43,864 bases of DNA from a virus (Duplodnaviria > Heunggongvirae > Uroviricota > Caudoviricetes). The DNA is taken from IMG/VR virus record IMGVR_UViG_2698536620_000007; one strand, 5' to 3'. Positions 3,945-36,968 of this stretch are shown here, piece by piece. The position numbers were made by a program, and so were the translations under genes. Each line of letters starts with the position of its first letter. Position 1 is the stretch's first letter. Under the pieces are notes generated by a model. That model was not told where the DNA came from. It did no database searches and saw nothing but the letters and a program-made list of their open reading frames with translations.

Positions 3945-4017
3945 AATAAAAAAATAACCCGAGGGGTGACTCAGGTTATTTGAGGTTTCAGTCTCGGAGA
4001 ATGCTGTCTCAAGCGAG

Positions 4018-4959
4018 GTGAATAATATGACCGATATTAACGATGTAATCAAGACCATTGATGAACTTATTGATGGCGGCGTACTGACGCAGTATGCCAT
4101 CGCCAGAGAGGCGGGAATTTCCGACGGCACATTATCGGCTTTCCGTAAGGGAAAATATAAAGGCGATAACGCTGCTGTGGCTGCTTCCCTGCGCTCCTGG
4201 TATGAGAACTGGAATAAACAAAGCGCACTGCCGGAACCGCCGCAGTTTGTGGAAACTCAGACAGTCCAGGAGCTGCGCGCACTGTTTCAGGCGGTTCGCC
4301 TGATGGGCTGTATTAACGTTATTGTGGGCGTACCGGGTGTGGGTAAAACGGCCACTGCCCGTAATTACTGCCAGGAGCAACCAAACACCTGGATGATCAC
4401 CCTGTCACCCGCGCACTCCAGCGTCACGGAGTGTCTGCTGGAGCTGGCCGATGCGCTGGGGATTGATTACACCCGCGCGAACAAAGGGGCATTATCCCGC
4501 GCCATCCGCCGTCGCCTGATGGGAACGCGTGGACTGGTGATTGTGGATGAGGCGGATCATCTTGGTATTGACGGTCTGGAGCAACTCCGGGCAATTCAGG
4601 ACGCCACGGGGATCGGGATGGTGCTTATTGGTAACCCGCGCGGATTGTTTAAAGGTGGACGCCGCGCCTTTGATGATTTATCGCGCCTGTTCAGCCGTCT
4701 TGCCCGTACAAAACAACTTCGCAAGGCCAAAAAGGCGGATGTGCTGGCCATTGCCATGGCGTGGGGGATCAGTGGTGAGGCCGAGCTGGCCGTCATGCAG
4801 GCTATCGCTGAAAAGCCGGGAGCGTTACGCGTTCTGACACATACGCTTAACCAGGCGTGGCTCACCGCCAGCGGTGAAGGCGCGGCGCTGACAGAAAAAC
4901 ATATTAATGCGGCCTTTAAAGAGGTTTATACCAACCCTGAATTACTCTCACAGGTGTGA
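4018..4959 (+). CDS. Mu B-like transposition ATPase / target DNA activator
   Basis: 313 aa with Walker A GVPGVGKT and Walker B VIVDEADH; follows transposase A. Confidence 0.85.
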   Translation: MNNMTDINDVIKTIDELIDGGVLTQYAIAREAGISDGTLSAFRKGKYKGDNAAVAASLRSWYENWNKQSALPEPPQFVETQTVQELRALFQAVRLMGCINVIVGVPGVGKTATARNYCQEQPNTWMITLSPAHSSVTECLLELADALGIDYTRANKGALSRAIRRRLMGTRGLVIVDEADHLGIDGLEQLRAIQDATGIGMVLIGNPRGLFKGGRRAFDDLSRLFSRLARTKQLRKAKKADVLAIAMAWGISGEAELAVMQAIAEKPGALRVLTHTLNQAWLTASGEGAALTEKHINAAFKEVYTNPELLSQV

Positions 4960-5451: not shown

Positions 5452-5733
5452 GTGAAAAAAAATCTCATTGCATGGGCGTGGTCGAGTGGTCTTATTGAGT
5501 TTGGTTACGTCCTGCCGGAAGGTGCATTGCCGATAGTTGCCGGAAAGCCTGCCACGGTACGGCATGTGATTGAGGTTATGGCGCGTCATGGACGTGATGA
5601 ACAGGAGCAGTTACTGGTTCCGGGGATACCGGAAGCGGTGACGGAGGAAGAAGCCTTTAATGCCATGATTCGGTTCTGCCGTGAGGTTAGACGCCGGGTC
5701 AGTTATCCAAACAGAACGAGGACCAGAGGATGA
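5452..5733 (+). CDS. Hypothetical early protein
   Basis: 93-aa ORF, start overlaps the previous stop. Confidence 0.4.
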   Translation: MKKNLIAWAWSSGLIEFGYVLPEGALPIVAGKPATVRHVIEVMARHGRDEQEQLLVPGIPEAVTEEEAFNAMIRFCREVRRRVSYPNRTRTRG

Positions 5734-6842: not shown

Positions 6843-6987
6843 CACCGCATTAATCAATTAAATATCACTTCATTTTAATTATGGCGCTCGCGTCAGGGGA
6901 CTGCTTGCGCCTGAAAACAGAAAATAAGGGTTAAGAAATATGAAATACGTTTATATCGTCATTAATAATGTGGTGGGGAAATAAATC

Positions 6988-7521
6988 ATGATTGATGCAA
7001 AAGTGCTTGAAGGGGTTAAAAACTGGCTGTGTATTTATGGCCGCCTGACCTGCGGTGTACTGGCTGAAAAAATGAATATGCCGCCATCCTCCATGGTTTA
7101 TTTTCTGCGTGATGCGGTTGATGCAGGCGTGCTGACGGAATGTAACGGTTTTTATGATATTCCGCGTCCCCGCCCGGTGCAGCCGGTTCGTCGCAAATGC
7201 AGCCAGGAATCTGCGGCTGATGATGTTCAGTGGTGCGGCTTCAGAAAATCCCTGCCATGGATTGAGGGGCATGATATTCCGTCGATGGCGTGGGAATTTG
7301 CTCAGGGCGTTCTGACCTGTGAAACCGTTTATGTGGTGGCTGAAGTTGATGAGCAGGCCATGAAAGAAGGCGTGCCCCAGTTTGTGATGGCGTATATCGA
7401 CATACGCCTGGGCGTCATTATCTGCGGTTTAAGCGGCTGGAATATCACTGAACATGTTCTGCGCTACCTGATTGTTGACCGGACAGCAGCGCCTGCCGGG
7501 ATATCTGCGGAGGTGGCGTAA
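6988..7521 (+). CDS. Hypothetical early protein
   Basis: 177-aa ORF in the rightward early operon. Confidence 0.45.
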   Translation: MIDAKVLEGVKNWLCIYGRLTCGVLAEKMNMPPSSMVYFLRDAVDAGVLTECNGFYDIPRPRPVQPVRRKCSQESAADDVQWCGFRKSLPWIEGHDIPSMAWEFAQGVLTCETVYVVAEVDEQAMKEGVPQFVMAYIDIRLGVIICGLSGWNITEHVLRYLIVDRTAAPAGISAEVA

Positions 7522-31737: not shown

Positions 31738-32288
31738 CCCTGACCCCGCATCAGCGCGCCCTGTTGCAGTTACTGCCTGACGGGCTGGCATGGGACAAGC
31801 GTCCGTCATCCGTACTGGCATCATTATGTCTGGGCCTCAGTCATTCGACAGCGCGTGTATCCTGGACGGGTAAACAGCTGCTTGCCGAGCGTTTCCCTGA
31901 CACGTCGCGCCTGCTGCTGGAAGACTGGGAGCGTTATCTCGGGCTTCCCGAGTGTGATATGGCCGGAGCCACCCTCACGGAGCGACAGCGTTATGCCGGA
32001 AATAAATACCGGATGAAGCCCTCGCTGAACCGTGAATTTTATATCCGGTTTGCGGCGGAGTTTGGTTATCAGATTGACATTCAGCCCTCACCGGATTCGC
32101 AGTGGGTCAGTATTGTCACGATTAACAGTGAAACCGGCTACCGGAATATGAATGTGCTGGATGATATTCTCACGCCGCTGCGTATTTATGAAGGCGGTGC
32201 GCTGGAATGTATTCTGAACCGTTATAAGCCTGCATGGCAGACGTTTATTTACGTTTATGCAAACAGCCATGAAGAGGAGACTATTTAA
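31728..32288 (+). CDS. Tail protein (Mu gp48-like)
   Basis: 186 aa immediately before the tail fibre. Confidence 0.7.
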   Translation: MAVTLTPHQRALLQLLPDGLAWDKRPSSVLASLCLGLSHSTARVSWTGKQLLAERFPDTSRLLLEDWERYLGLPECDMAGATLTERQRYAGNKYRMKPSLNREFYIRFAAEFGYQIDIQPSPDSQWVSIVTINSETGYRNMNVLDDILTPLRIYEGGALECILNRYKPAWQTFIYVYANSHEEETI

Positions 32289-33212
32289 TGTTTCATGTTG
32301 ATAATAATTCCGGCGTGGCGAATATGCCTGCGCTGGCACCGGCGCAGAGTAATACCACCACCTGGTTTACCGAAGGTGACGGACAAAAAGGTATCAGCTG
32401 GATTGGTCAGGACTGGCTGAATATTCTCCAGGCCGAACTGCTGAATATTCTGGCTGAAGCCAGTATTCAGCCGGATAAGGCGCAGTTAAACCAGCTTACG
32501 CTGTCCATTAAAGCCATTATCGCTGCGAATGCCTTTTCCCGGAAAAATAACCTGAAAGAAATTGCTGATGCCGGTGCGGAGGCCCAGCGTCTGGCCCGTG
32601 GTTATCTTGGTCTGGGGACGCTTGCCACAAAAAACAGTCTTGGTCCCGCTGACGTTAATGCCCTGGCGAAGGATCAGAATCTCGCCGACCTGGAGAATAA
32701 GGGAACCGCCCGTAATAATCTGGATGTTTACAGCAAAAGCGAAGGTGATAANNNNNNNNNNNNNNNNNNNNNNNNNNNNNNNNNNNNNNNNNNNNNNNNN
32801 NNNGCGCAGGGAGCAGAACGGCGCAGACATTCCGGATAAAGGGGCTTTTATCGATAACGTCGGTTTACGGGAAACGGTAAACAGGGCGGCGAATGCCCTG
32901 CCATCGGACGGCACCGCCGTTGCCGCGAACAGGCTGGCAAATGCCCACACAATTAATGGTGTTCCCTTTGACGGGACGCAGGATATCACTATCTCATCAG
33001 GAACAGTAACCGCCATAAGACTGGGGTCGGTGACCGCACATATGCCCGGAACATGGGAAAGCTGGGATCTGAATCTGGGGGGCGGCAATGTTCTTACCGG
33101 AATTAAAGTACAGGATGTCGGTAAGAATACGGCAGATAACGTCGGCGGCGTGTATTACCGGCCGTTGCAGTATCTGTTAAATGGAGCATGGGTGACGGCT
33201 GCAAGTATATAA
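32288..33212 (+). CDS. Tail fibre protein (constant N-terminal part plus currently joined variable C-terminus); interrupted by the N gap
   Basis: N-terminal part 32288-32751 is in frame 2, post-gap part 32805-33212 in frame 0; fibre-like Gly/Asn/Thr-rich sequence; the gix-like site at 32848-32873 lies inside the gene. Confidence 0.7.
32752..32803. other. Assembly gap / masked bases (52 N)
   Basis: Run of n characters in the input. Confidence 1.
32848..32873. other. gix-like recombination site, left boundary of the invertible tail-fibre segment
   Basis: TTATCGATAACGTCGGTTTACGGGAA resembles the 26-bp Mu gix site (recalled from memory) and is the inverted partner of 34165-34190. A roughly 107-bp inverted repeat runs inward from the core. 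Confidence 0.65.
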
Positions 33213-33220
33213 TGATATTC

Positions 33221-33240
33221 AGAAGGCCTTCCGGCCTTCT
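33221..33240. terminator. Bidirectional hairpin between convergent fibre and assembly genes
   Basis: AGAAGGCC-TTCC-GGCCTTCT perfect hairpin. Confidence 0.5.
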
Positions 33241-33243
33241 TTA

Positions 33244-33765
33244 TTACTGTGGCTGCTCAGGCCATTTAATGGCGTTAAATTCAGCTTCTGTTTTAATGGC
33301 GGGTAGTTCCATTTTCTTCACCTGACTGATGTATGCCATCCATTGGGTAAGTGCTGCTCTGTCTTCATCGCTGATGGTGCCCAGTTGTAGCTCCGTTCTC
33401 CAGTCATTAATTTTTTCATATGCCTGATTAAGATATGACTGGCGCATTGCTTCCAGTTTTCTTGCGTAGTTAACCGGAATACGGGAGATTATGCCATTAT
33501 CAAACTTCCAGTTTCCTGAAATATCCGTGCCTTCAGGGAGTTCATCGACCTCAACCACAGAAAACCCCGCAGGATACAGCGCCGAGGCGTCCTGTGATAT
33601 TGAGCAGATAACGCCGCTGTCAGGTGTTATGCAAAGTTTATATTTTTTGGTGAATAATGGCAGGGATTCGTAGAAATCCTTACCATCTTCACTCTGGAAA
33701 TACTGAACATTATTACCATATGGCATATTTTCAGGATAATAACGGGTTATATTTTTTAGTTCCAT
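33244..33765 (-). CDS. Tail fibre assembly protein (Mu U-like)
   Basis: 173 aa with the conserved Tfa C-terminal region (DEDRAALTQWMAYISQVKKMEL...WPEQP). Confidence 0.75.
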   Translation of the reverse strand: MELKNITRYYPENMPYGNNVQYFQSEDGKDFYESLPLFTKKYKLCITPDSGVICSISQDASALYPAGFSVVEVDELPEGTDISGNWKFDNGIISRIPVNYARKLEAMRQSYLNQAYEKINDWRTELQLGTISDEDRAALTQWMAYISQVKKMELPAIKTEAEFNAIKWPEQPQ

Positions 33766-33816
33766 AAAATCCTCCTGGAAATAAATCTGTTTTAAAATAT
33801 ATTATTTACTGACTAT

Positions 33817-34177
33817 TTATAACTGAGATACCGTAATCCATGTACCTCCGACTAATTTTTGCAGGGGTCTGAATGCTATAAAATCGTTTGAAGCATCAAC
33901 TTTACTGTCAATCTGCAGGCCTGCCATAACATTACCGTACGCAGAGTAATATGCCCCACCGTACATTACCTGCCTGTTCTCTGCTCCCAGCCTGATATCC
34001 TGGATATATCGGGAATCCGCATCCTGCTGTGTTATACCAGAAGTGATGTTTATGTCCTGCGTCCCGTCAAAGGGAACCCCATTAATATTTCTTGGGGTGG
34101 CGAGTCTATTCGCGGCAACGGCGGTGCCGTCCGATGGCAGAGCATTCGCCGCCCTGTTTACCGTTTCCCGTAAACCG
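33817..34177 (-). other. Alternative tail-fibre C-terminal segment (Sv'-like), no start codon of its own
   Basis: Minus-strand frame open from the right gix site to TAA at 33817-33819 (...VPFDGTQDINITSG...GTWITVSQL*). Its first roughly 35 codons match the left inverted repeat inside the plus-strand fibre gene. Confidence 0.55.
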
Positions 34178-34190
34178 AGGTTTTCAGGAA
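34165..34190. other. gix-like recombination site, right boundary of the invertible segment
   Basis: TTCCCGTAAACCGAGGTTTTCAGGAA; its reverse complement matches the left site from the central TC core inward. Confidence 0.65.
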
Positions 34191-34255
34191 AGCCAGGATT
34201 AACTCTGTTTTATTCCTCATGCGACAATTCCGGCTTTTTATAATAAGGAAATCGT

Positions 34256-34828
34256 ATGCTGATTGGGTATATCAGGGTGTCAACAAATGACCAGAATACG
34301 GCGCTACAAAGAAATGCGCTGGAATGTGCAGGATGTGAGCTGTTTTTCGAAGACAGAATAAGCGGTAAGACAAGGGAGCGTCCCGGACTTAAACGCGCAT
34401 TAAAGCGACTCCGGCCAGGGGATACCCTGCTGGTCTGGAAACTGGATCGCCTTGGACGCAGTATGCAGCACCTTGTCCTTTTAACAGAAGAACTCCGGCA
34501 ACGCGGCGTTAACTTCCGCAGCATTACGGACAATATTGATACATCCACTCCCATGGGACGTTTCTTTTTCCATATAATGGGCGCGCTGGCGGAAATGGAG
34601 CGGGAACTCATTATTGAACGTACACGCGCGGGTCTTGCTGCTGCCCGTGCTCAGGGGCGTCATGGCGGCAGACCTCAGAAACTGACAGAGAAAGAGCGGG
34701 AGCAAATCGCCCGTTTGCTGGCTAATGGCGAGTCCCGTAAACAAATCGCACTGATATTTGATATTGGCCTTTCCACCCTTTATCGTTATTTTCCTGCCTC
34801 ACCAGCTCCGTCACCAAAAGTACCGTGA
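34256..34828 (+). CDS. gin: Gin/Hin/Pin-family serine DNA invertase
   Basis: 190 aa; N-terminal GYIRVSTNDQ with the catalytic Ser and a C-terminal HTH; adjacent to the invertible segment. Confidence 0.9.
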   Translation: MLIGYIRVSTNDQNTALQRNALECAGCELFFEDRISGKTRERPGLKRALKRLRPGDTLLVWKLDRLGRSMQHLVLLTEELRQRGVNFRSITDNIDTSTPMGRFFFHIMGALAEMERELIIERTRAGLAAARAQGRHGGRPQKLTEKEREQIARLLANGESRKQIALIFDIGLSTLYRYFPASPAPSPKVP

Positions 34829-34913
34829 CGCTTTTTTGAATTTCCGCAAAACACATATTTTTCAGCGGTCGCTATTCTGACTCTGTTTAATTCAGAAACA
34901 GGCAGAAAAGACG

Positions 34914-36968
34914 ATGTCAGACTCCAAGTGGAAAATGCTCTCCGCCATGCCCGGAGAGTTTTCAGTCAAGGTTGCCGGTGGCACGGTGGCATTTATTGAA
35001 AGCCCTTTCCGCCCTTCGGGTAATAAAGGGGGGATCACCTTCGCAGACTGCGTGATCCGCTTCAGCACGAAAGAGCCATTATGGGTAATGCCGGTATCCG
35101 GTAATCCCAGTGCAGAAATCACCAGTTCAGGCGTGACTGGCATCATTCCAATCACATCTGACGTGGCCGGAACGCTCACGCCCTCCGACTGGAATGCACC
35201 GGATAACGCCGGGCCTTCCGGTAGCACGAATGGCAGCAGTTCAGAGCCGGAATATTACTTTGTTGTCATTCTCGCGGGTCAGTCAAATGGCATGGCCTAC
35301 GGCGAGGGGCTGCCGTTACCGGATTCGTTTGACCGCCCGGACCCACGCATTAAGCAACTGGCACGCCGCAGTACGGTAACGCCCAACGGTACGTCGTGTA
35401 CATACAACGACATCATTCCGGCAGACCACTGCCTGCATGATGTTCAGGATATGAGCGGGATAAACCACCCGAAAGCTGATCTGGCAAAAGGCCAGTACGG
35501 GACTGTCGGTCAGGGGTTGCATATTGCCAAAAAACTGCTTCCCTATATCCCACAGAATGCCGGGATACTTCTGGTGCCCTGTTGTCGTGGCGGGTCAGCA
35601 TTCACCACTGGAGCCGACGGCTCATTCAGTGAGGCCAGCGGTGCTTCCGCTGATTCTTCACGCTGGGGGGCCGGTAAACCTCTGTATCAGGACCTGGTAA
35701 GCCGCACCAAAGTCGCGCTGGCGAAAAACCCGAAAAACAAACTTCTGGCTGTGGTCTGGATGCAGGGAGAGGCAGACCTTGCCTCAGGAAGCCAGCAGCA
35801 TAATAGTTTATTCACGGCCATGGTTCAGCAGTTCAGAACTGACCTGGCTCCGCTTGCTGCGCAGTGCGTGAGTGGAAATGCCACCACGGTGCCGTGGATT
35901 TGCGGTGATACCACGTATTACTGGAAAAACGCTGGCACCGATAAATATGAGGCAGTATACGGTGGCTACAAAGGCAAGGAAGCACAGAAAATTTTCTTTG
36001 TACCGTTCCTGACGGATGAGAATGGACAGAGCACGCCAACGAATGCTCCGGCGGAAGACCCGGATATTGTGGCTGTCGGGTATTACGGTGCAGCATCCCG
36101 AACCCAGGGCAGTTTTGTTTCGACACAGCGTGACAGCCATTTCAGCTCATGGGCACGCAGGGGCGTCATTTCAGACCGTCTGGCCTCAGCTATTATGCTC
36201 CATGCAGGGCGCACGGCTGAACTGATGCGTGGGCAGACCGTGACACCACCGGATGAGAAGCCGTCACCTGATACACCATCAAAACCGTCCACGCCACCCG
36301 CAGACACCACGACGATGAGTACGCTATTTGCTTACCGGGCATCTGAGTCTGAAGGACGGTTGACACCACAGGGTTGGGCTGCCGGAGGTGGCAAGGCTCA
36401 AATCGTGGATGATGCCGGAGCCAGCGGGGGTAAGGCAATGAAACTGACCAAGGAAACAGGAAGAGCCCCCTGGTACCTTGAGCATGATGCTGGTAATGGT
36501 GCGGACCTGCTGGGTAAAGGTGGTCTTGTCAGTTGTCGTTTTAAACTCGATGGCGCGCTTACGGCTAATCAGTACGCACTGGCGCTGTACTGGCCGGTTT
36601 CTGCCCTGCCGCAAGGGGTTACTCTGGAAGGAAATGCCGGTCATAACCTGCTGGCATCGTTCTACGTACAGAGCGATGCCACAGACCTTAACGTGATGTA
36701 TCACAAAGGAAACACGGCGCAGAACACGAAGCTGGGGTCATTCGGCGCATTTAATAACGAATGGCATACGCTGGGCTTCCGTTTTGCCGGTAACAACAGT
36801 ATTGAGGTGACGCCGGTCATTGATGGTAAGGACGGGACACCATTCATGCTGTCGCAGTCTCCGGTCGGCACGTTTACGGCAGACAAGTTGCGCGTGACCG
36901 ATATCACTAAAAATGCGACTTACCCGGTACTGATTGACAGTATCGTGGTGGAAGTGAATAACGCGTAA
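34914..36968 (+). CDS. SGNH/sialate-O-acetylesterase-like carbohydrate esterase with a C-terminal lectin-like domain (cargo)
   Basis: 684 aa; VVILAGQSNGMAYGE (GQSN block) and VVWMQGEAD block typical of the DUF303/sialate O-acetylesterase family; Pro/Thr/Ser-rich linker (PPDEKPSPDTPSKPSTPPADTTT) before a C-terminal beta-rich domain. Confidence 0.55.
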   Translation: MSDSKWKMLSAMPGEFSVKVAGGTVAFIESPFRPSGNKGGITFADCVIRFSTKEPLWVMPVSGNPSAEITSSGVTGIIPITSDVAGTLTPSDWNAPDNAGPSGSTNGSSSEPEYYFVVILAGQSNGMAYGEGLPLPDSFDRPDPRIKQLARRSTVTPNGTSCTYNDIIPADHCLHDVQDMSGINHPKADLAKGQYGTVGQGLHIAKKLLPYIPQNAGILLVPCCRGGSAFTTGADGSFSEASGASADSSRWGAGKPLYQDLVSRTKVALAKNPKNKLLAVVWMQGEADLASGSQQHNSLFTAMVQQFRTDLAPLAAQCVSGNATTVPWICGDTTYYWKNAGTDKYEAVYGGYKGKEAQKIFFVPFLTDENGQSTPTNAPAEDPDIVAVGYYGAASRTQGSFVSTQRDSHFSSWARRGVISDRLASAIMLHAGRTAELMRGQTVTPPDEKPSPDTPSKPSTPPADTTTMSTLFAYRASESEGRLTPQGWAAGGGKAQIVDDAGASGGKAMKLTKETGRAPWYLEHDAGNGADLLGKGGLVSCRFKLDGALTANQYALALYWPVSALPQGVTLEGNAGHNLLASFYVQSDATDLNVMYHKGNTAQNTKLGSFGAFNNEWHTLGFRFAGNNSIEVTPVIDGKDGTPFMLSQSPVGTFTADKLRVTDITKNATYPVLIDSIVVEVNNA

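Follow-up and report, generated by a model that had tools for sequence, protein, structure and literature searches.

In Din-type host-range switches such as P1 C/Cin and e14 P/Pin, a serine invertase is combined with a tail-fibre gene that is split at a crossover site and has alternative C-termini (the comparison with the P1 and e14 segments rests on general knowledge). In these systems the invertase gene contains, in its 5' portion, a Fis-dependent recombinational enhancer. The usual rule is that each fibre tip needs a cognate tail-fibre assembly chaperone (Tfa) encoded just downstream, and the G segment of phage Mu, of about 3 kb, does carry two Tfa genes, U and U', as the original prediction for this locus had it. 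Here we describe the invertible fibre segment of IMG/VR virus record IMGVR_UViG_2698536620_000007 (hereafter the window, which is the whole stretch of 43,864 nt; positions are counted on the given strand). The window contains an Sp18-like transposable (Mu-like) prophage of Escherichia coli in which two alternative tips are accompanied by one Tfa gene, instead of one Tfa per orientation as in the Mu G and P1 C segments. The Sp18-like group has already been catalogued, and Sp18 itself was scored '(+) atypical' in 2009 by Asadulghani et al. (PMC2669165). No paper discussing the missing second Tfa of these prophages was found in the literature searched, and the conserved one-Tfa asymmetry is a real, unexplained variant. 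Throughout, orientation A is that of the window, with the Tfa gene antisense to the fibre, and orientation B is that in which the Tfa gene lies downstream of the alternative tip on the same strand.

The constant part of the fibre gene (Sc), the tips (Mu S and S'), the Tfa (U and U'), Gin and the gix sites are all homologous to those of the Mu G segment. The differences are in scale and content: 1.3 kb and one Tfa in the window against about 3 kb and two Tfas in Mu, variable parts of about 120 instead of about 320 amino acids, an inverted repeat of about 150 nt instead of 34 bp, and a DUF6645/SASA esterase gene plus two small genes between gin and mom. The crossover site gixL (32848-32873) consists of TTATCGATAACG-TC-GGTTTACGGGAA, with the central TC at 32860-32861, and gixR (34165-34190) consists of TTCCCGTAAACC-GA-GGTTTTCAGGAA, with the central GA at 34177-34178. 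The two sites are inverted relative to each other, their central dinucleotides match (GA is the reverse complement of TC), and the span between the crossover dinucleotides is 1,315 bp. Identity to the Mu sites is 22/26 for gixL with IRL and 21/26 for gixR with IRR, and alignment placed the gix sites at the same position in S as in Mu. The inverted pair of gix-like 26-bp sites announced in the original prediction was therefore found where expected, although the repeat is actually longer: it comprises 86-nt arms at 93% identity (32853-32938 and 34100-34185) plus 50 nt at 84%, far above chance. Its left arm (32853-33001, complementary to 34037-34185) codes for the N-terminal part shared by both alternative variable regions, the first ~45 residues of which are common.

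The gin-type serine DNA invertase gene (34256-34828, plus strand) encodes a protein of 190 amino acids that is 74% identical to Mu Gin, including the YIRVSTNDQ motif, and that matched Resolvase (PF00239, E value 2e-51), HTH_7 (PF02796, E value 5e-15) and phrog_125 (DNA invertase). The 5' 230 nt of the gene aligned well with Mu gin. A small serine recombinase, inverted 26-bp sites, both orientations in nature and an in-frame crossover in the fibre gene were all observed. In every defining feature tested, apart from the number of Tfa genes, the system conforms to the ordinary pattern of the Din inversion family.

Homologues of Mu gp47 and gp48 precede the fibre gene S, which begins directly after the gp48 homologue. 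Its constant part Sc (32288-32860, plus strand), which extends up to the gixL crossover and is 47.5% identical to residues 1-198 of Mu S, contains a run of 52 N (32752-32803) located 45 nt from gixL. In identical closed genomes these 52 N are replaced by just 9 nt (CCGTTACCT), so that S, assembled in the window at 32288-33212 (plus strand), is an intact open reading frame (ORF) of 293 amino acids; the change of frame that it seems to contain was introduced by the assembly. It might be argued that the whole arrangement is an artefact too, produced by mis-joining of the inverted repeat beside the gap, as this gap lies so close to gixL and many draft contigs of the family break at the repeat. Against this, the 2,027-bp region in the orientation of the window was present at ≥99% identity in 18 closed E. 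coli genomes (13 of them at 100.0%) and the gap hides only 9 nt; this explanation is thereby refuted. In IMG/VR and NCBI, many draft contigs from Sp18-like prophages start or end near residues ~169-221 of S; this suggests that the invertible repeat interrupts draft assemblies, perhaps as a result of mixed cultures.

The S ORF is completed by Sv, the class I ('alpha') tip (32861-33212, plus strand; 117 codons and a stop), which is expressed in orientation A. The class II ('beta') tip, Sv', runs on the minus strand from 34177 down to 33817 (120 codons and a stop), and only inversion joins it to Sc. Because the crossover lies in frame inside S, each orientation gives a full-length fibre, and both S (293 amino acids, orientation A) and S' (296 amino acids, orientation B) were found as intact ORFs in natural genomes. 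The flip swaps the last 117 codons of S for 120 alternative codons. The alpha tip matched the C-terminal end of the short tail fibre of phiTE (9cuy_c, E value 5e-11) and Mu S' (E value 0.016), and the beta tip matched the Mu S tip 5yvq_A (domain E value 1e-4), which was crystallised with U in entry 5yvq. The 9cuy_c entry was rejected as a solved structure of a class I tip, since only residues 3-92 are modelled (PMC11972413).

The two classes share homology with one another as well as with the tips of Mu. Within the Sp18-like family, class I comprises alpha (Sv of the window) and gamma (O157), carries the motif ADN[IV]GGVYYRP[LV]Q and is always convergent with the Tfa gene; class II comprises beta (Sv' of the window), delta, epsilon and zeta and is always immediately upstream of it. 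Pairwise Nei-Gojobori comparisons of class I tips across lineages gave ratios of non-synonymous to synonymous divergence (dN/dS) of 0.05-0.2 over dS values from 0.1 to >1, and the values for delta tips (0.11-0.12) fell within this range. Both tips are homologous, selected receptor-binding domains.

The two orientations were found in nature. In strains NCCP 13983 and FORC_043 the same segment is flipped, and the 296-residue S' is followed by the Tfa gene on the same strand; the expectation that Sv' and Tfa form one transcription unit only after inversion was in this way confirmed by natural flipped genomes. Searches of complete genomes with synthetic Sc plus Tfa queries retrieved 26 genomes with the identical segment in A and six with it in B, and one prophage copy in each orientation was present within a single genome in DLI.5a, TOE17, AST46 and CI5. 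Among ~15 billion public proteins, the exact window-type fibre was encoded on 997 contigs in its A-form and on 41 in its B-form, and the exact O157-type fibre on at least 1000 and on 32, respectively. The O157-type complete genomes were in orientation A in 182 cases, with B close to zero; among these 182, none was observed in B. The gix sites were unchanged between orientations, as is expected when exchange takes place at the central dinucleotide. The locus is, therefore, a working Gin/gix inversion switch, in which Gin recombines gixL and gixR at the central TC/GA and flips 1,315 bp, and A is its predominant state in E. coli.

Some O157-type copies differ from the window at the crossover cores, which match in the latter. 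An 80-nt stretch around gixL with the core TT was matched exactly by 89 complete genomes of Shiga toxin-producing E. coli (STEC), and in the O157:H7 locus F1273 (L008; sites at 5518-5543 and 6893-6918), the only such locus read, gixL has the core TT and gixR the core GA, a mismatch. The cores of IMG/VR locus L041 (TT and AA) are a matched pair. A mismatch of the core dinucleotides is expected to block inversion by Gin or Hin, and the TT/GA mismatch may consequently lock the copies that carry it. A second candidate for a lock, a crippled O157-type gixR with the variant outer half GGTTTCAGGGAT, was rejected, because IMG/VR loci L060 and L061 carry this variant in orientation B; the O157-type B-form fibre encoded on 32 contigs also contradicts it.

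The only Tfa gene of the segment (33244-33765, minus strand) encodes 173 amino acids and is preceded by a strong AGGAGG ribosome-binding site of its own. The protein matched Caudo_TAP (PF02413) with an E value of 5e-19 and 69 bits (cut-off, 22), phrog_136 (E value 5e-56) and Mu U (5yvq_B, E value 4e-16). Its closest relative outside the family is the Tfa of Rac-SA53 (49% identity), followed by Mu U' (32%) and Mu U (28%), and it is 61% identical to the O157-type Tfa. A 51-nt, A+T-rich leader (33766-33816, minus strand) separates the stop codon of Sv' from the Tfa start, and a terminator-like, G+C-rich hairpin of eight pairs with the tail TTATTACTGT (33221-33240, plus strand) stands between the convergent Sv and Tfa. 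The gaps in the segment measure only 31 nt and 51 nt, and no second Tfa was detected in it by tblastn with nine Tfa queries. A Tfa-like remnant at 41048-41781 was discarded as a second copy, since it belongs to a flanking lambdoid remnant. As regards the contents of the segment, the original prediction held in full: Sv on the plus strand and Tfa and Sv' on the minus strand are at the positions claimed, no second Tfa is hidden in the gaps, and the system is a Gin/gix fibre switch with one chaperone gene.

This layout is not peculiar to the window. It was present in every Sp18-like Mu-like prophage examined (>200 complete genomes and ~45 IMG/VR loci), with the recurrent order S, antisense Tfa, antisense partial fibre, invertase and DUF6645 esterase in O157:H7 and other STEC (Sp18), CI5, STEC299, STEC2017-197, STEC2018-553 and IMG/VR loci. 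In Sp18 of E. coli O157:H7 Sakai the series starts with gp47 and gp48, the antisense partial fibre corresponds to Sv', there is likewise a single Tfa, and Sc is 98% identical to that of the window at the nucleotide level; the tips are gamma and delta, instead of the alpha and beta of the window. One Tfa is thus the conserved layout of the whole Sp18-like phage family. In 40 other invertible fibre loci from IMG/VR (L198-L238), the order was tip, U, and then antisense U' and tip', with two Tfas wherever the contig was long enough.

One question is how a class I fibre is assembled in orientation A, where the Tfa gene is on the opposite strand. Near-identical Tfas adjoin four different class II tips and oppose two class I tips in the Sp18-like family, which points to a generic chaperone. 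No covariation of Tfa with either tip class was found, the Tfa types being common to several tip types. The Rac-type Tfas, which are the nearest to that of the window, pair with class I tips. Judged from sequence comparison, the most economical reading is most likely that one shared Tfa would serve both tips and would be made, in orientation A, from the strand opposite the fibre operon. Since one generic Tfa would serve both tips, its expression should be independent of orientation, and a putative Tfa promoter would act in A independently of the late fibre transcript. To this reading as a whole, a working switch with one generic Tfa for both tips, expressed whatever the orientation, we give about even credence. 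The reading that either the class I tip became chaperone-independent, or one Tfa, convergently transcribed from its own orientation-independent promoter, folds two fibres, appears rather doubtful.

The relationship between class I tips and Tfa was analysed outside the family. Aligned class I tips, used as the query against IMG/VR, retrieved 80 loci, 31 of them Sp18-like and 49 from other phages. All of the 31 Sp18-like loci had an antisense Tfa ~40 nt downstream of the tip, whereas all of the 49 other loci had a co-oriented Tfa 5-20 nt downstream. Eight further IMG/VR loci (L231-L238) also combine a class I tip with a co-oriented Tfa ~5-20 nt away, raising the total outside the family to 57/57, and the same was observed downstream of the class I tips of Pectobacterium phage POP15 and Rac-SA53. 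By association, class I tips are therefore Tfa clients. The alternative is that the class I fibre of the Sp18-like family folds without Tfa, which would be needed by class II only. The lack of a co-oriented Tfa in >200 genomes and ~31 IMG/VR loci speaks for it, and so does the small size of these fibres (293-303 amino acids, against 504 in Mu), whose folding may be simpler. However, no feature separating the class I tips of the family from Tfa-linked class I tips was found in the sequence, and a relative from Citrobacter braakii ATCC 51113 shows the reverse pairing, in which a class I-like tip has the only Tfa. In that prophage (L016) Sc is 75% identical to that of the window, and the invertible fibre segment, which has a single Tfa, is accompanied by a homologue of gin, but the Tfa is of the DUF4376 type (229 amino acids) and co-oriented with the class I-like tip, so that the 472-residue fibre of the assembled orientation is the one without a co-oriented Tfa. 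The region (4001-7871 of L016) includes a third gix-like copy at 7190-7223, which suggests a multiple-inversion system. Two Tfas are found in L064, a locus related to L016.

Further evidence came from a lineage without gin. Sv' and gin are missing in two complete genomes of mouse E. coli (M1 and M3) and in IMG/VR loci L029, L030 and L032-36; a partial match indicates that M18 probably belongs to this lineage as well. One deletion junction is common to M3 (L007) and the seven IMG/VR loci (L007 coordinates 3962-4267), and the deletion spares the last ~20 codons of Sv' and the last ~75 nt of gin. With Sv' and gin deleted, orientation A is fixed and the class I tip, which is alpha or gamma in this lineage, is the only fibre. 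Its members differ from each other by 5-6.5% in the gin remnant and by 2-8% in the tip remnant, and an 83-nt stretch upstream of the DUF6645 gene is invariant among the gin-less variants. The antisense Tfa was intact in all of them, with dN/dS values of 0.11-0.23. Between L007 and L029 the flanks and the Tfa gene are equally diverged (3.6%), and the Tfa genes show 10.5 synonymous and 8.5 non-synonymous changes with a synonymous site fraction of 0.21 (binomial p = 0.002). The constrained, intact Tfa of a lineage without gin indicates that the gene was kept by selection even though it can never be co-transcribed with the fibre. From this conservation we infer that the Tfa is needed in orientation A. 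The retention of a constrained Tfa after loss of the class II tip also speaks against class I fibres that fold unaided. We regard this last possibility, which had been put forward in the original prediction, as unlikely, the same tip class being always linked to a Tfa outside the family.

Several results weigh against a shared chaperone expressed in both orientations. Upstream of the Tfa gene on the minus strand, sigma-70 promoter candidates were not above shuffle expectation in the window, in M3 or in the O157 locus; the minus-strand hit TGGACA-17-CATATT at the deletion junction of M3 was at chance level and was not accepted as a promoter. Nor was the box CCATAACCCC of Mu late promoters, which was defined on the four that are annotated in Mu, found upstream of Tfa (in the window as a whole it had 52 matches at ≤2 mismatches, against 39 ± 5.5 expected). 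The failure to find a promoter for the antisense Tfa also favours a class I fibre that needs none. Moreover, L030 and L035 have identical flanks and 22 differences in Tfa, which means that Tfa alleles recombine between phages; the signal of purifying selection may thus partly have arisen outside the locked lineage. The counts behind the ratio of A to B, ~25:1 by contigs, lack phylogenetic independence, and assembly into a consensus shows only the majority orientation. As regards the infectivity of virions with A-type fibres, Mu-like particles and packaged DNA of Sp18 were seen, and transfer was not assayed (PMC2669165). In Mu a leftward promoter, momP2, is located next to gin (PMC4287176). A momP2-like source of leftward transcription was not adopted for the window, where mom is 3.4 kb further to the right; momP2 is, in addition, down-shifted by C.

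The absence of a co-oriented Tfa in A could also mean that A is an 'off' or defective state, giving particles with misfolded fibres or none, and that only B is infectious. Mu-type fibres depend on Tfa (general knowledge; 5yvq complex), which is antisense in A, and the infectivity of Sp18 has never been shown. Such a state is difficult to reconcile with the dN/dS of 0.05-0.2 retained by class I tips over dS up to >1, the same as in class II, and with the persistence and diversification of gin-deleted derivatives locked in A. The orientation counts also bear on this point. In Mu, the predominance of G(+) has been explained by infecting founders plus slow inversion (PMC4406740). By the same logic, A should be in excess if E. 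coli lysogens are founded by A virions and inversion is slow, whereas B-only infectivity would make the founders B, contrary to the ~25-fold excess of A. A non-functional fibre in the assembled orientation, as contemplated in the original prediction, is therefore not supported, and we consider it very improbable.

Finally, the chaperone could be supplied in trans in orientation A, either by the Tfas of other prophages or by a B-orientation copy. E. coli hosts contain many Tfa genes; a DUF4376 protein and the C-terminal part of a Tfa are encoded in the lambdoid remnant of the window; identity between the Rac-type Tfa and that of the window is 49%; and copies in both orientations coexist in four genomes. 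However, the late genes of other prophages are not expected to be on during Mu-type lytic growth. Reliance on chance co-residents would limit the spread of the phage, but members of the family are common and inserted at different places: O157-type prophages have been described at varied chromosomal sites (PMC7430833), and the 182 A-orientation complete genomes contained them at many. Supply in trans would also leave the conservation of Tfa in the locked lineage unexplained, and it is quite unlikely in our opinion. Among the alternatives to the generic Tfa, a chaperone-independent class I tip is the most likely, followed by supply in trans and then by a defective orientation A.

With regard to its context, profile searches of the window proteins indicated that the segment belongs to an almost complete transposable Mu-like prophage. 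MuA, MuB, GemA, sheath, DNA-circularisation protein N, baseplate J and gp48 proteins are encoded (families Mu-transpos_C, HTH_Tnp_Mu_1, Phage-MuB_C, GemA, DNA_circ_N, Baseplate_J, Phage_Mu_Gp48 and Mom), and both the MuA plus MuB pair and the Mu-type late gene order are present. The Mom-family gene (38262-39194) has a longest ORF of 310 amino acids, ~80 more than Mu Mom (231 amino acids), with the Pfam match beginning at residue 96; it is 3.4 kb from gin, whereas mom adjoins gin in Mu. Between gin and mom, positions 34914-36968 encode a 684-residue protein with a SASA/SGNH acetylesterase domain plus DUF6645, which could be a receptor-modifying tail enzyme or the product of a lysogenic-conversion gene. 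The DUF6645 gene occupies this place in the complete family members checked and is truncated in 2014C-3011. The motif (A/C)TCTGTTT(T/A)A was found three times on the plus strand, at 33782-33794 (in the Tfa leader), 34200-34215 (upstream of gin) and 34880-34893 (upstream of the DUF6645 gene); its recurrence may be due to chance in A+T-rich spacers or to a shared regulatory element. Positions 39413-43566, to the right of the Mu-like prophage, contain what is left of a second prophage, of the lambdoid type. This remnant consists of an IS66 transposase fragment (39413-39871), a truncated tail fibre with a phage_tail_N domain (39925-41097), a DUF4376 protein (41048-41671), the Tfa C-terminal fragment (~41614-41781), 53% identical to residues 86-145 of Mu U, and a NEL-type E3-ligase effector of type III secretion systems (41851-43566, minus strand).

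When phages or tailocins are re-targeted, it is the fibre tips and the Tfa chaperones that are exchanged, usually on the rule that each tip requires a cognate Tfa encoded just downstream. The Sp18-like family, which is frequent in pathogenic E. coli, O157:H7 among them, breaks this rule in a conserved way, with two tips, one Tfa, and that Tfa on the wrong strand in the commoner orientation. For the annotation of these prophages, the invertible repeat would explain the runs of N and the breaks inside the fibre gene in draft assemblies, and neither the antisense Tfa nor the 'partial tail protein' should be taken as a sign of decay. If one Tfa folds both tips, it would be a compact, generic chaperone for engineering; if the class I tip of the family needs no Tfa, comparison with its Tfa-dependent relatives would reveal the determinants of chaperone dependence. 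Either reading, if true, would represent a mode of regulation and folding as yet undescribed in Din-type host-range switches, and would provide a minimal natural system, with tips of ~120 amino acids and one Tfa of 173, in which to define why a fibre tip depends on a chaperone.

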